Notes: a model not told the origin generated them from the sequence alone. DNA of 64,000 bases from Fibrobacteria bacterium (GCA_043745805.1 JAYTSD010000043.1:32001-96000); one strand, 5' to 3'. Positions 21,638 through 26,552 are shown, numbered from the stretch's first letter. A program made the numbers and translations.

Positions 21638-22477
21638 GTGCACATGGGTGATCAACTGCAAAATTGTTTAGAAGTGGCCAATTATCAAAATGTTTCGCAT
21701 CTAATCAAATCTTTCCAAGTACCACCGATTAAGTTTATCAATCCTAAGGCTATAAAGGGTTGTTGCCAAGTTTTTATTTCCAATTATGGCGGTGGAATGG
21801 TGGCAGGCGATGATGTACAAATCGATATTAATTGTTTGCCAGCGACAAAACTTTTTTTAGGAACGCAAAGCCACACAAAAATTTACAAATGTGAACAGAA
21901 GCAAATTTGTTCACAAAAAATAACCGGCTCAGTGCATGCCGACGCTATGGTAGTTTTTTTACCAGATCCCTTGTTGCCCTTTGCTAAAAGTCGTTTTCGG
22001 CAAAATCAAGAATGGCAAGTCGATGGGTCAGGAAATTTACTTTTATTGGATTGGATTTATGCCGGACGTTTGAGCCGAAATGAGGTTTTTGCTTATTCCG
22101 AATTGTTTTCGGAGTTAAAAATTTGGCGCGGAAACCGATTGCTTATACTGGAAAAATTGGCATCAAAGCCATCGCTCGACAATCCATTTTTTGCCGGACG
22201 ATTTGGATCTTATACGCTTTCAGTTAATATTTATGCGGTGGGAAGCAAGGTGAATGATTTATTGCAAAAAGTTTTTTTGGATTCGAAACTGCAATCGCAA
22301 GCTTTTGAAAAGGCACAGGAATGCGTGGCCACTTACAGTTTGTGTGAACGGGATGTGGGTATTGTAAAAATTATGAGTAAAAGTCGCGAAGCGATTTGGC
22401 CTTGCATGCAATTATTACATGAGGCTTTGGCACAGCCAGAAATTTTATCTTTCAATCCCATGGCACGAAAATATTGA
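21638..22477 (+). CDS. ureD: Urease accessory protein UreD
   Basis: NYGGGMVAGD, TQSHTKIYK, FLPDP, LLDWIYAGR; first gene of the ure cluster. Start is GTG 21638 or ATG 21644. Confidence 0.9.
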   Translation: MHMGDQLQNCLEVANYQNVSHLIKSFQVPPIKFINPKAIKGCCQVFISNYGGGMVAGDDVQIDINCLPATKLFLGTQSHTKIYKCEQKQICSQKITGSVHADAMVVFLPDPLLPFAKSRFRQNQEWQVDGSGNLLLLDWIYAGRLSRNEVFAYSELFSELKIWRGNRLLILEKLASKPSLDNPFFAGRFGSYTLSVNIYAVGSKVNDLLQKVFLDSKLQSQAFEKAQECVATYSLCERDVGIVKIMSKSREAIWPCMQLLHEALAQPEILSFNPMARKY

Positions 22478-22533
22478 TCGAAAGTATTAATCAATTTTAT
22501 TAATTAAATAAATATAAAGAATTAAGGAGGCCG

Positions 22534-23301
22534 ATGCATCTTTCACCAAGAGATATTGATAAGCTGATGTTACATCAAGCCGGTGCTTTAGCACAAAAGC
22601 GCTATGCGCGAGGATTACAACTTAATTATGCGGAATCGGTGGCTTTAATTGCCGCGCAATTATTGGAATTTATTCGTGATGGGGAATCGGTAGCTACGCT
22701 CATGGATAAAGGCAAACGTTTGCTTGGCTTTATCGATGTATTACCTGGGGTTGCCGAAATGGTTGAGGAAGTGCAAATTGAAGGTACTTTTCCCGATGGG
22801 ACAAAGCTAGTTACGGTGCATCATCCTATTTGTGCAGCTCAAGGTCAGGAGGCTTTGGCTTTATATGCTTCGGGCTTGAAAAGGATCTCAATCCCTGCAG
22901 CGCATACCGCAAAAAATAAAATCGTGCCGGGTGAATATTTATTAGCCGAAGGGGATATTGCTTTAAATGTGGGCCGTGAGATTTTACAGGTTACGGTAAC
23001 TAATGTTGGAGATAGACCCATTCAAGTGGGTTCGCATTATCCTTTTTTTGAAACCAATGCCGCTTTAAAATTTGATCGCGAAAAAGCCTTTAGCTTTCGT
23101 TTAAATATTCCTAGTGGCACCGCCGTTCGTTTTGAGCCGGGTGAAACTAAAACCGTGGAATTAGTGGCTTTTGCCGGAGAAAGAAAAGTTTATGGTGGCA
23201 ATGCTTTAATAAGCGGTGCTTTAGATGATGCAATGGTTAAGATACAGGCACTTAAAAAGGCATCGCAAGAGGGATTTATGACTAAGGGAGAAATCGTATG
23301 A
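22534..23301 (+). CDS. ureAB: Urease fused gamma-beta subunit
   Basis: Gamma domain ([11 protein letters not shown]...[12 protein letters not shown]) fused to beta domain (PGEY...[11 protein letters not shown]...GTAVRFEPG); AAGGAGG RBS. Confidence 0.96.
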
Positions 23302-25016
23302 GCCGTAAAATTCAAAGACAAGCTTATGCGGATATGTATGGTCCTACGGTAGGGGATAGAATTCGTTTAGGGGATACCGCCTTAATTGTGGAAGTGGAGA
23401 AAGATTTTACCATATATGGCGAAGAGTGTAAATTCGGTGGAGGCAAAGTACTTCGAGATGGAATGGGGCAGGCGGCAGGGATTCCACAGGTGCAGGCTTT
23501 GGACTTACTCATAACCAATGCTTTAATTATCGATTATACGGGAATTTATAAAGCCGATATTGGTATCAAGAATGGACGTATTTGTGGTATTGGTAAAGCA
23601 GGTAACCCACATATCATGCCAAGCATAAATGCAAATCTAATTGTGGGTGTAACTACAGAAGTGATTGCCGGAGAAGGCCATATTGTTACGGCGGGTGCCA
23701 TTGACACCCATATTCATTTTATTTGCCCGCAACAAATTGAAGAAGCTTTAGCTTCGGGCGTAACCACTTTTGTAGGGGGAGGTACCGGTCCTGCTACGGG
23801 CACCAATGCCACCACTTGCACGCCAGGTGCTTTTTATATTGAAGCTATGTTACGTGCTGTGGAAGCTTATCCTATGAATTTTGGATTCTTGGGTAAAGGC
23901 AATTCGGCTTTGCCACAGGGCTTAATAGAACAAATTGAGGCCGGAGCTATTGGATTAAAATTGCATGAAGATTGGGGTACCACGCCTGCTACTATCGATT
24001 GTTGTTTGGATATCGCTGAAAAATATGACGTGCAAGTCGCGATTCACACCGATACTCTTAATGAAAGTGGTTTTGTAGAAACCACTATTGCGGCTTTTAA
24101 AGGACGTACCATTCATACCTTTCATACCGAAGGAGCAGGGGGTGGGCATGCTCCTGATATCCTTACGGTTTGTGGATTAGAAAATGTATTACCATCTTCT
24201 ACTAATCCGACAAGACCCTATACAGTCAATACTTTGGATGAACATTTGGATATGCTGATGGTGTGCCACCATTTGGATAAAAACATTCCTGAGGATGTGG
24301 CTTTTGCGGAAAGTCGTATACGCGGTGAAACTATTGCAGCGGAAGATATTTTGCATGATATGGGTGCTATTTCCATGATGTCTTCGGATTCGCAAGCTAT
24401 GGGTAGAGTAGGGGAAGTGGTGACACGCACTTGGCAAACCGCGCATAAAATGAAAACGCAAAGAGGATTATTAGCGGAGGATCAAAGTTCGGTTTTAGCA
24501 ACGGATAATTTTCGGGTGAAGCGTTATATCGCCAAATACACTATTAATCCTGCCATAGCCCATGGCATGTCCGAAGAAATAGGTTCGGTAGAAGTGGGCA
24601 AGTTGGCGGATTTAGTTTTATGGAAGCCTGCTTTTTTTGGTATTCGCCCAGAAATTATTCTTAAAGGCGGTTTCATTGCGCAAGCGCAAATGGGTGATCC
24701 TAATGCTTCCATTCCTACGCCGCAACCTTATTATTCTCGGCCGATGTTTGGATCCAAAGGCTCTGCGGTGGGTTCGCATTCTATCGCTTTTGTTTCACAA
24801 GCGGGTTTAAAACAAGCTTCAACGTACGGATTGCGCAAAAAACTTGTGGCTGTGAAAAACTGTCGTAATATCAATAAAAAATCCATGAAGCTCAATGATT
24901 ATACGCCGAATATTAGTGTAGATCCCGAAACCTATGCGGTCAAAGTGGAAGGCCAAGTGATTACTTGTGAGCCTGCTTCGTCCTTACCTTTATGTCGATT
25001 ATTCACTTTGTTTTAA
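23298..25016 (+). CDS. ureC: Urease alpha (catalytic) subunit
   Basis: Ni-ligand and active-site motifs intact: [42 protein letters not shown]. Confidence 0.98.
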
Positions 25017-25017
25017 T

Positions 25018-25722
25018 ATGGATTTATATGCCTTATTGCAATTAGCTGATACGGCCTGGCCTACCGGAGGCTTTGCCTTTTCGCAAGGACTTGAAAGTCA
25101 CGCTCGCTTGGGTTTGATCGCTGATGAAAAAACTTTTACCGAGTATCTTGACAGTTACCTTGGTCAAGTCGCTTCCCATGAACTGCCTTTTTTAAATTCG
25201 GCTTTTCAATTTTGTTTTTTACAAAATGAAGCTCAAAAAAAAGAGTTTAAAAATCTTGCGGAAGAATGGAACGCGAGCTTAACCGCAGCTCCAATAAAAA
25301 AAGCGAGTATCACCCAAGGTAAAGCTTGGTTAAGATTAGTGGAAGCCGTTTATCCCACATTTTCCGTCCAATCTTTTTTATCAGCGCTCACTATTTCACG
25401 CCGCTTAACAAACTTTAATATCCCACCTCATTTTTTATTGGTTTATGCTTGGGTGATGAAGTCCTTAGCTTGTGATTTGGAAACTGCGCAAACATTATTT
25501 TTTCATTTAGCATTACGGGATCAAATGAGTGCCGCCATTCGCTTAGGGCTTTTAGGCCCATTACAAGCACAAACCCTACAAATCAAATTACAAAAATGTT
25601 GCCGAGTGTATCGAGAGCGATACGGTAACCTGGATTATACCCAAGCGCAAAGAACTGCCCCTTTAATAGATATTGGGCAAAGTTATTCTCCACAACTTTA
25701 TTCTCGTCTTTTTCAAAATTAA
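25018..25722 (+). CDS. ureF: Urease accessory protein UreF
   Basis: [28 protein letters not shown]-terminal YSRLFQN. Start moved to ATG 25018, just after the ureC stop. Confidence 0.93.
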
Positions 25723-25742
25723 TTCGCGAAGCAAGGAACTTA

Positions 25743-26552
25743 ATGTCAGAATCTCATTCCCATCCAGCAAATGAATCTCCTAAATCAAATGATCCGAAAT
25801 TCAAAAAAATAGATTCCACTCCCCTGCATACCCATAGTCATGGGATGATAGGTCACGGTCATACGCATGAACCTATGGACTCGCCTGGTGAATATCGCTT
25901 ACGTGAACTGATTAAAACCGATAGAGATTTTGTTAAAAGGGCCTTCACCATTGGAATTGGTGGACCCGTAGGTTCAGGTAAAACGGCTTTATTAAAGTCT
26001 CTCTGCGAAAGCCTAAGAGACAAGTATCGTTTGGGTGTAGTTACTAATGATATTTTTACGCGTGAAGACGGTGAGTTTTTGATTCGACATAAAGCGTTAA
26101 CTCAGGATCGAATTTTAGCCGTTGAAACGGGAGGCTGTCCGCATGCGGCTATACGCGAAGATGTGAGTGCGAATATGTCGGCTTTGGAAGAATTGATGGA
26201 GCGCTTTAATGGGGAATTGGATTTGTTATTTGTTGAGAGTGGTGGCGATAATTTAGCGGCGCATTTTGGTAAAGAATTAGCAGACTATACTATTTATGTG
26301 ATTGATGTGTCGGGTGGGGATAAAATTCCCCGTAAGGGTGGGCCGGGAATTACCCAAAGTGATTTATTGATTATCAACAAGACCGATTTGGCGCTTCTTG
26401 TTGGAGCTGATCTGTTGGTTATGGATAGAGATGCTAAAAAAATGCGTGGGGAAGGGCCGTTTCTATTCTGTAGAGTTAAGGACATGGTGGGTGTGCCGGA
26501 AATTATTGGGCATATTGAACAGGCTTGGAAGGAAGCCGTAAAAAGGGTTTGA
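25743..26552 (+). CDS. ureG: Urease accessory GTPase UreG with His-rich N-terminus
   Basis: [42 protein letters not shown] extension. Confidence 0.97.

Follow-up and report, generated by a model that had tools for sequence, protein, structure and literature searches.

A two-chain urease cluster without UreE in a Fibrobacteria bacterium and its relationship to eukaryotic ureases

The urease locus

The window analysed in this work is a stretch of 64,000 nucleotides (nt) of one DNA strand from a Fibrobacteria bacterium (GCA_043745805.1 JAYTSD010000043.1:32001-96000), and its subject is the urease gene cluster lying at positions 21638-26552. An annotation made from the sequence alone (the initial annotation) had described the order ureD-ureAB-ureC-ureF-ureG, with the gamma and beta chains of the enzyme fused in ureAB. 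These open reading frames (ORFs) were all recovered on the plus strand with Pfam and NCBIfam models in agreement (Table 1), and every motif quoted at that time, including the UreF ending YSRLFQN, is present in the translations. The data presented below lead us to consider, with a probability of about 0.8, that the whole system belongs to the bacterial clade nearest to all the eukaryotic ureases sampled, with a predicted mode of function free of UreE.

The five ORFs are co-oriented, tightly packed and full length against the family models, and the GC content of the cluster (0.40-0.42) is the same as that of its flanks. The ureAB product reaches 328.5 bits with the NCBIfam model NF009671, 'bifunctional urease subunit gamma/beta' (cut-off 243), and fails the Helicobacter-type UreA model NF010592, which it matches in two stretches with 272.8 bits vs a cut-off of 353. 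UreC also exceeds its NCBIfam cut-offs, with 1018 bits vs 354 for NF009686 and 970.8 vs 680 for TIGR01792. The three urease domains do not form a single polypeptide in the window: ureAB and ureC are separate ORFs in different frames that overlap by 4 nt (ATGA), with the ureAB stop at 23299-23301 and the ureC ATG at 23298. The UreC translation holds SSDSQAMGR plus other strings regarded as metal-ligand and catalytic residues, which, as in Klebsiella aerogenes, would be the nickel ligands and the flap residues (HxH, the carbamylated Lys, two more His, an Asp and the flap Cys-His). In UreG, both the P-loop (GGPVGSGKT) and the CPH motif are intact. The ORF of ureF opens at a GTG inside ureC (24967), but it probably starts at the ATG at 25018, two bases past the ureC stop at 25016, because the relatives align only from query residue 13-25 on. 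No ureE lies between the genes of the cluster, where the end of ureC directly meets this ATG. Altogether, the locus is predicted to encode a nickel urease of two chains, UreAB and UreC, and the cluster is ordinary, probably functional and of a type already known.

Table 1. Features of the urease cluster and of its neighbourhood in the window
Feature	Position (nt)	Strand	Evidence and remarks
ureD	21638-22477	+	Pfam UreD 3e-44; GTG start at 21638, ATG two codons on at 21644
ureAB	22534-23301	+	255 aa; Pfam Urease_gamma 1e-43 and Urease_beta 1e-42 within one ORF; gamma, residues 1-100; linker, 101-129; beta, 130-232; then a 23-residue tail
ureAB linker, conserved piece	22843-22878		
ureC, catalytic alpha chain	23298-25016	+	572 aa; Urease_alpha PF00449 1e-56 and Amidohydro_1 PF01979 1e-81
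ureF	25018-25722	+	Pfam UreF 4e-24
ureG, GTPase	25743-26552	+	269 aa; Pfam cobW/UreG 2e-37; TIGR00101 291 bits over residues 69-261
HGHTHE of UreG	25854-25871		residues 38-43
amtB, ammonium transporter (upstream)	13887-15380	-	Pfam Ammonium_transp 2e-107
urtE	15627-16325	-	ABC_tran match and position only
urtD	16325-17074	-	TIGR03411 358 bits
urtC	17071-18144	-	TIGR03408 433 bits
urtB	18134-19882	-	TIGR03409 401 bits
urtA	19952-21241	-	TIGR03407 587 bits
Outer-membrane porin (BBP2/Porin_4)	26719-27777	+	Pfam 6e-13
glnB-type P-II nitrogen regulator	27908-28246	+	Pfam P-II 8e-31

Bacterial relatives

The initial annotation had allowed that similar clusters might exist in other bacteria, and they were indeed commonly found in three scans. 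A UreAB scan of the genome collection gave 51 loci, the closest of which show 57-70% identity to the window in UreAB and 71-77% in UreC and are labelled Verrucomicrobia, Kiritimatiellota, Fibrobacteria, Phycisphaerae, Tepidisphaerales and Acidobacteria; ureAB is fused in all of them, and ureF comes directly after ureC wherever the locus reaches that far. Within the family of the window itself, a fused ureAB with 59-69% identity occurs in 22 of 31 other genomes, and in some other families of that class gamma and beta are ordinary separate genes. Of 301 Planctomycetota genomes sampled, 19 had a match, 18 of them in the fused form. Eleven plasmid loci served as named references, among them Klebsiella, Bacillus, Providencia, Haloarcula, Streptomyces and a closely related Hymenobacter, and the reference rows with split, three-chain ureases (Klebsiella, Bacillus, Mitsuaria, Sinorhizobium, Clostridium perfringens, Providencia) are 48-57% identical to the window in gamma. 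As for the organism, it is probably a member of Fibrobacterota, since rows of named Fibrobacteria metagenome-assembled genomes (MAGs) nest among those of the window's own family in a tree of 65 rows (see below).

A search of protein representatives with UreC gave no resolution, because the conserved alpha chain collapses into a few 50% clusters; its top three matches had 67%, 67% and 65% identity, the third being a single chain of 851 aa.

Several loci deserve separate mention. One MAG contig labelled 'uncultured Bifidobacterium sp.' (L006) carries urease, UreD and UreG genes that group tightly with the Fibrobacteria MAGs and the window's family in every tree, so its taxon label looks wrong. 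On the Hymenobacter radiodurans plasmid (L052, 4437-6665), an extra hypothetical ORF of 182 aa separates ureA(B) from ureC; no gene is listed for the ureC region, where the match spans only residues 1-556 of 572, and this ureC may be damaged or simply missing from the plasmid gene table. A Persicobacter sp. plasmid (L099, 6001-8463) has ureAB (6001-6753) and ureC (6757-8463) in the same frame, parted by one stop and one further codon, and a plant urease used in tblastn read across both as one piece. A bacterial single-chain urease in Persicobacter, as this single piece would have it, was rejected in view of the two same-frame ORFs with a stop between them.

Likeness to eukaryotic ureases

When compared with longer proteins only, UreAB matched single-chain ureases with 49-59% identity, in alignments that take in the linker and the tail and cover 89-100% of the query. 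These proteins come from plants, chytrid and glomeromycete fungi, oomycetes, haptophytes, dinoflagellates, a chromerid, corals and mussels. By domain, identity between the eukaryotic enzymes and the window amounts to 60-75% for gamma, 52-62% for beta and 64-70% for alpha. In the Protein Data Bank (PDB), the best matches of UreAB are the ureases of jack bean (3la4) and pigeon pea (4g7e), each in one stretch that spans the linker, and those of UreC are these two plant enzymes again, with 864 and 858 bits vs 849 for the best bacterial chain (8hcn_C). In the opposite direction, a Selaginella urease used as seed against all plasmids gave 170 urease-bearing records, among which two Hymenobacter two-chain loci rank first.

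Phylogeny of the structural genes

The gamma, beta and alpha segments were aligned separately, leaving out the linker, and then concatenated; all trees are unrooted. A quick tree of 68 rows (781 columns) and a careful one of 48 rows (782 columns) were both built with LG+C20 under the posterior mean site frequency (PMSF) approach. The 68-row tree left out 15 of the 51 genome loci as partial or near-duplicate (L009, L027, L030, L033, L037, L039-L043, L045-L047, L049, L051), and locus L075, whose genome is unpublished, was not used. The 48-row set is that of 68 minus 20 rows, including the two longest branches, and the 65-row tree has 17 rows more.

In the 68-row tree, 20 eukaryotes and 14 two-chain bacterial rows form one clade with a support of 100 in the approximate likelihood-ratio test (SH-aLRT), the eukaryotes being monophyletic (96) and joined at 97 by four Phycisphaerae/Acidobacteria rows. 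The 48-row tree recovers 14 eukaryotes plus 14 two-chain rows, the window among them, with 100 ultrafast bootstrap (UFBoot) and 100 SH-aLRT, and the eukaryotes are again monophyletic (100/96). Maximum-likelihood phylogenies had been proposed by the initial annotation, and in them the subunits group with eukaryotes, not among ordinary bacterial ureases: 100/100 for the structural genes of the 48 rows and 99 each for the UreG and UreD trees described below. In the 65-row tree the clade grows to 45 rows (100) and splits into groups of 17 and 28. The group of 17 (subclade A, 93) holds the window, its family, Fibrobacteria, Verrucomicrobia, Kiritimatiellota, Hymenobacter, Azobacteroides and two Planctomycetota, and the other (99) holds 14 eukaryotes and 14 Planctomycetota/Acidobacteriota rows. 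The whole clade is also obtained from the gamma and beta columns (99) and from the alpha columns (98), and no long-branch warning fell on it in the structural trees.

The union of eukaryotes with the two-chain bacterial clade is therefore robust. An alternative grouping of eukaryotes with cyanobacteria, as for a plastid origin, was rejected by the approximately unbiased (AU) test (p=1.5e-64, log-likelihood difference 136). With regard to a mitochondrial origin, the alphaproteobacterial rows lie in two other clades of the 68- and 48-row trees. Nested and sister placements of the eukaryotes are both compatible with the AU tests. The subclade of the window lineage has a GSGL linker and is a neighbour, not a part, of the group to which the eukaryotes attach in most trees.

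Linker and motifs outside the tree columns

The initial annotation had regarded a gamma motif and the post-gamma linker as eukaryotic in type, and both observations hold. Among 68 rows, LHQAG.LAQKR.ARG is confined to the clade and the eukaryotes, and the linker aligns with those of eukaryotic ureases and of the two-chain relatives. The eukaryotic version, ..GDLxLAL[YH]GSFLPVP...F, is matched nearly residue for residue by the Phycisphaerae and Acidobacteria rows, and GSFL[PD] was found in 15 of the 18 fused Planctomycetota loci. Subclade A, with the window and its family, has ..G[DQ]xxLALY[GA]SGL.., so that the pattern common to eukaryotes and clade is ..GD.xLAL[YH]GS[FG]L.. Five other fused ureAB types (Sulfolobaceae, two alphaproteobacterial, one from an Enterobacter plasmid and one from Streptomyces) have short, unrelated linkers, and their fusions are read as independent events because they lie elsewhere in the tree. 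The UreAB tail that follows beta is not diagnostic: it can be aligned with the beginning of the eukaryotic beta-alpha connector, but similar tails are found in unrelated fused types.

Among 120 long, mostly single-chain hits, 103 carry GSFL, six a GSGL-like linker and 11 another one. The single chains with a GSGL-like linker (P0006, P0010, P0012, P0014-P0017) were considered as a second fusion near the subclade of the window, an idea that was rejected: the GSGL/GCGL proteins that were placed (P0006, P0012 and P0014; FastTree only) all fall within the single-chain clade. As a separate observation, three Planctomycetota genomes (G236, G253 and G270) have two urease loci each (L091-L093, L095-L097): one is of the fused type with a GSGL/GSGM linker, and in the second, with about 50% identity to the query, gamma and beta are encoded by different genes.

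The accessory proteins UreG, UreD and UreF

UreG has an N-terminal extension of 68 residues with nine His, among them those of HGHTHE. A search with the UreG core against longer proteins only retrieved UreG from fungi, oomycetes and mussel, those of fungi and oomycetes being 75-77% identical; the values for Klebsiella and Bacillus UreG are 55-61%, taken over a longer stretch than the eukaryotic comparison. In a UreG tree of 47 rows, eight eukaryotes and ten two-chain bacterial rows group at 99, with the eukaryotes monophyletic (94); two of ten named eukaryotic proteins (P0272 and P0349) were left out because of apparently mis-modelled N-termini. Ahead of the P-loop, and mostly outside the kept tree columns, the extension shows the motif H.H.H[ED]..[DE].[PA]G.[YF]..R followed by RD[FWY]..RAFT, which is full in 9 of the 10 bacterial rows of the clade, degenerate in the Acidobacteria row and present in 8/8 eukaryotes (Pro to Ala in three). 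Its alignment with the fungal and oomycete motif points to a nickel-binding domain, as which the extension is here predicted.

Two further UreG proteins were noted. A protein of 396 aa (P0381), from a 395-kb contig whose origin is unknown, combines the C-terminal half of the UreF domain with a complete UreG, which has 77% identity to the UreG core of the window. Outside the clade, the UreG of a Paenibacillus sp. locus (L034) with no UreE match begins with GHTHQEWESP, which resembles the clade motif and may reflect convergence or domain transfer.

The UreD tree joins one eukaryote, the UreD part of a Closterium gene model (P0074), to 13 two-chain bacteria (99), and next to the Phycisphaerae, Tepidisphaerales and Acidobacteria rows (92). 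The UreD motifs that the initial annotation had called eukaryotic-like are specific to this clade of 14 rows in the forms [YF]GGG..GD and [LV]DW..GR, and the YGGGMVAGD and LDWIYAGR of the window follow the pattern common to the two-chain clade and the charophyte UreD. The Closterium model (1629 aa) contains a full single-chain urease and a C-terminal UreD domain; it may be a merged prediction, which would make urease and UreD genes neighbours in this charophyte. For UreF, the ending proposed as eukaryotic-like has to be divided: YSRLF is general and found in Klebsiella too, and it is the Q following it that is specific to the clade, where LYS[RK]LFQ[SN] (LYSRLFQN in the window) ends 10/10 two-chain rows and 0/18 others. 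Searches for UreF in the protein atlas found bacterial UreF clusters only.

Absence of UreE and nickel supply

The genome of the window is 99.19% complete, and the absence of ureE and nickel transporter genes from the cluster, pointed out by the initial annotation, extends to the rest of it. Neither UreE_C (PF05194) nor UreE_N (PF02814) gave any match across the whole genome, and the same was true of a hidden Markov model (HMM) for UreE that we trained on seven annotated proteins. UreE is annotated in L053, L054, L055, L056, L058, L060 and L061, which serve as positive controls. The HMM picks up UreE in 26 further loci outside its training set, all of them outside the two-chain clade, and finds none in the 10 two-chain loci that reach through ureF/ureG; UreE_C likewise has no match in five genomes of relatives with this type of urease. 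The ureE located elsewhere in the genome that would have argued against the initial annotation was thus not found by any of the three models. The ureG of the window is the sole gene of the cobW/HypB/UreG family in the genome, with no second GTPase of the HypB/UreG type, and HypA gave no match there either. Neither the absence of UreE nor a His-rich UreG N-terminus is diagnostic when taken alone, since both occur outside the clade.

For the plants and fungi, maturation without UreE by a His-rich UreG is textbook knowledge. Cryptococcus Ure7 is reported to bind nickel and to substitute for the missing UreE, and changing its conserved N-terminal His site to Ala abolishes urease activity (PMC3663189). 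This site would correspond to HGHTHE. By analogy, the His-rich N-terminal domain of UreG (HGHTHE..PG.Y) would hold nickel and hand it over, doing the job of UreE, and the UreD-UreF-UreG GTPase complex would mature the enzyme by the established GTP-dependent route. Urea would enter through the adjacent UrtABCDE transporter, and the ammonium produced would feed a nitrogen-scavenging neighbourhood with AmtB and P-II.

Comparison with known urease systems

The eukaryotic systems of jack bean, pigeon pea and Cryptococcus (Ure1 with Ure4, Ure6 and Ure7) have the domain order gamma-linker-beta-tail-alpha of the window, a homologous gamma-beta linker, UreD, UreF and UreG without UreE, and the HGHTHE..PG.Y N-terminus of UreG. 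They differ in that they have one chain, and the window two polypeptides; in the linker, GSFLPVP vs GSGL; and in the segment connecting beta and alpha, which is not found in the window past the UreAB tail. Moreover, the genes of the window form an operon-like cluster beside a urea ATP-binding cassette (ABC) transporter, unlike those of eukaryotes.

Among bacteria, the nearest known counterparts are the two-chain ureases of the NF009671 type from Bacteroidota and relatives, such as Cytophaga hutchinsonii and Blattabacterium (both according to PMC2768785, neither in any tree), with a fused gamma-beta gene followed by ureC as in the window. The plasmid loci of Hymenobacter and Persicobacter agree with the window in gene set and belong to its clade. 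The window nevertheless represents a lineage separate from these Bacteroidota-type enzymes, 55-70% identical in UreAB, and its ureD is upstream and co-oriented, whereas in Hymenobacter, Kiritimatiellota and Verrucomicrobiota it is downstream on the opposite strand. All accessory genes are reported to be missing in Blattabacterium (PMC2768785).

Helicobacter uses UreE and UreI. The H. pylori enzyme (UreA, gamma-beta; UreB, alpha; PDB 1e9z) shows the same type of fusion as the window, with 229 bits for UreA and 834 for UreB; however, Helicobacter UreA aligns in two stretches that leave the linker unaligned, where plant ureases align in one. The comparison suggests that the Helicobacter fusion, which is in none of the trees, arose independently of that in the window. 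Finally, the Klebsiella cluster ureDABCEFG has the same chemistry, domains and UreD/F/G machinery (UreC 65% identical), but with three structural genes, UreE, a UreG lacking the N-terminal extension and a position in a different clade.

A fused ureAB outside Helicobacter has been described in print as 'not a novel situation', with C. hutchinsonii cited for it (PMC2768785), and the NCBI family model NF009671 already covers the fused gamma/beta chain. A 2018 review (PMC6077230), on the other hand, has two-chain ureases known only in Helicobacter and, after Ligabue-Braun et al. 2013, not as intermediates to the single chain, and it calls the primitive chain state 'one of the unanswered questions'. 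No paper linking a non-Helicobacter two-chain clade to eukaryotic ureases was found in a full-text literature search with subscription journals largely outside its reach.

Proposed origin of the eukaryotic enzyme and competing explanations

The clade spans Fibrobacterota, Verrucomicrobiota, Kiritimatiellota, Bacteroidota, Planctomycetota and Acidobacteriota, and, because it is the nearest relative of all the eukaryotic ureases sampled, the eukaryotic single chain is best read as the two-chain form plus one more fusion, in a series from three chains to two to one. We also lean, with less confidence than for the clade itself, towards a single source: the eukaryotic urease and its three maturation factors would derive from one two-chain, UreE-less bacterial operon, acquired once before the extant supergroups diverged, from a donor like the Planctomycetota/Acidobacteriota with GSFLPVP ureases. 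If this is true, the two-chain form would be the missing intermediate, contrary to the published view, and the HGHTHE domain of UreG that replaces UreE would have arisen in bacteria and passed from them to eukaryotes. The proposal of the initial annotation that this lineage sits close to the bacterial source of eukaryotic urease can be kept at the level of the clade, the window lineage itself not being the nearest bacterial row.

A number of points weigh against such a reading. Planctomycetota/Acidobacteriota rows are closer to the eukaryotes than the window lineage in most trees, yet in the 48-row tree the nodes inside the clade have only 50-80 UFBoot, with 50-72 for the joins between eukaryotes and Planctomycetota/Acidobacteriota, and the alpha-only tree does not unite the eukaryotes and subclade B, formed by the Planctomycetota/Acidobacteriota rows, as one group. 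The AU test keeps a monophyletic bacterial two-chain clade as sister to the eukaryotes (p=0.24 with 14 rows, p=0.28 with 31); because this arrangement is not rejected, GSFLPVP may be the ancestral state and not the mark of a specific donor. The sampling is also uneven: the bacterial loci were seeded by similarity to the window protein, plus plasmids, and Helicobacter, myxobacteria and Asgard archaea are in no tree. The eukaryotes of the UreG tree are seven fungi and one oomycete only, those of UreD come down to the long branch of the probably merged model P0074, and eukaryotic UreF was not retrieved at all, a 134-aa piece searched against longer proteins giving one match of unknown origin. With respect to nickel, no permease of the NiCoT, HupE/UreJ or CbiM kinds was found across the genome to serve as an importer, and Nitrospira, Paenibacillus and Streptomyces loci outside the clade likewise have no UreE match and a His-rich UreG N-terminus.

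Topology alone fixes no direction, since the AU test keeps eukaryotes sister to all two-chain bacteria, and the patchy presence of the clade over six phyla implies gene transfer among phyla. One could therefore imagine that a bacterium took urease and helper genes from a eukaryote, split the chain in two and passed the genes on to other phyla. We regard this as highly improbable: the successive outgroups (Nitrospira, cyanobacteria, proteobacteria) are all bacterial three-chain ureases, the bacterial rows are paraphyletic around monophyletic eukaryotes in most trees, and the UreD, UreG and structural-gene trees agree. Four genes would have to be captured and rebuilt into one operon with urt genes, and urease genes are generally dispersed and intron-bearing in eukaryotes. 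In Cryptococcus they are reported not to be clustered (PMC3663189). An artefact of sampling or model, with the true nearest prokaryotic kin lying elsewhere and the shared features being convergent or ancestral, is given some room by the use of peptide patterns from the window's own protein to find the loci, by the several unsampled lineages and by the representative search, in which a few 50% clusters took in nearly all ureases. It is nonetheless very unlikely, as each of four partitions (gamma+beta, alpha, UreG, UreD) recovers the clade at 98-99 under a site-heterogeneous model, the structural trees raise no long-branch warning on it, the linker and the UreG N-terminal motif agree though not among the tree columns, and the plant-seeded search of 170 plasmid ureases also ranks members of the two-chain clade first.

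Two other explanations concern function. The promoter and terminator scans at chance level (see below) would fit a decaying or silent remnant with no active urease; the chance of this is next to negligible, with five intact, full-length ORFs, intact catalytic and GTPase motifs, linkage to an intact urea transporter and conservation of the cluster in 22 of 31 family genomes. As for the mechanism only, nickel could come from another source, either a SlyD-like or His-rich chaperone or diffusion, with the UreG extension serving some other end. A His-rich segment is low-complexity sequence, and Bacillus subtilis is reported to make an active urease without any known accessory genes (cited in PMC2768785). 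This we consider doubtful, because the extension is more than His-rich: H.H.HE..D.PG.[YF]..R is kept in position, in full in 9 of 10 bacterial rows of the clade and, in full or with Pro to Ala, in 8/8 eukaryotic rows. In the same sense, HypA and HypB were not found in the genome, His-containing UreG N-termini occur in four of five non-clade loci with ureG but no UreE match, and activity in Cryptococcus requires the second conserved His site of Ure7 (PMC3663189), which would be equivalent to HGHTHE.

With the eukaryotic enzyme taken as a further fusion of the two-chain form, the value of the locus is phylogenetic, as the passage from three to two to one chain becomes directly testable. Since its linker and its types of UreD and UreG are those of eukaryotes and UreE is missing in both, the clade offers a concrete stepwise route of fusion, with living bacteria in which the steps can be tested, such as the host of the Persicobacter plasmid with ureAB and ureC in one frame and a single stop between them. 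The clade also offers genetically tractable bacterial models of UreE-independent nickel delivery, the mode of plants and of those fungi in which urease has a part in virulence (PMC3663189).

Neighbourhood of the cluster

The urtABCDE genes (15627-21241) are divergent from ureD, and the locus with its neighbours reads as a nitrogen-scavenging island. Scans for promoters and terminators over the locus did no better than on shuffled sequences. No terminator-like site was found between ureG and the porin gene; the sole hairpin lies at 27811-27833, and such sites are not above chance. In the urtA-ureD spacer, TGGAATGAGGTTTGCA at window positions 21427-21442 was noticed by eye for the GG-N10-GC spacing of sigma-54 promoters. 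A sigma-54 promoter in this spacer was dropped as a candidate: TGG-N8-TTGCA had been seen by eye only, and the matches of the pattern search, run with the wrong spacing, were at chance level. Just past amtB (10406-13442), there are two genes of the ExbB/MotA type and two DUF3450 regions, one a separate gene and the other the N-terminal part of a larger ExbB-type protein, which may energise uptake across the outer membrane, conceivably that of nickel or urea.

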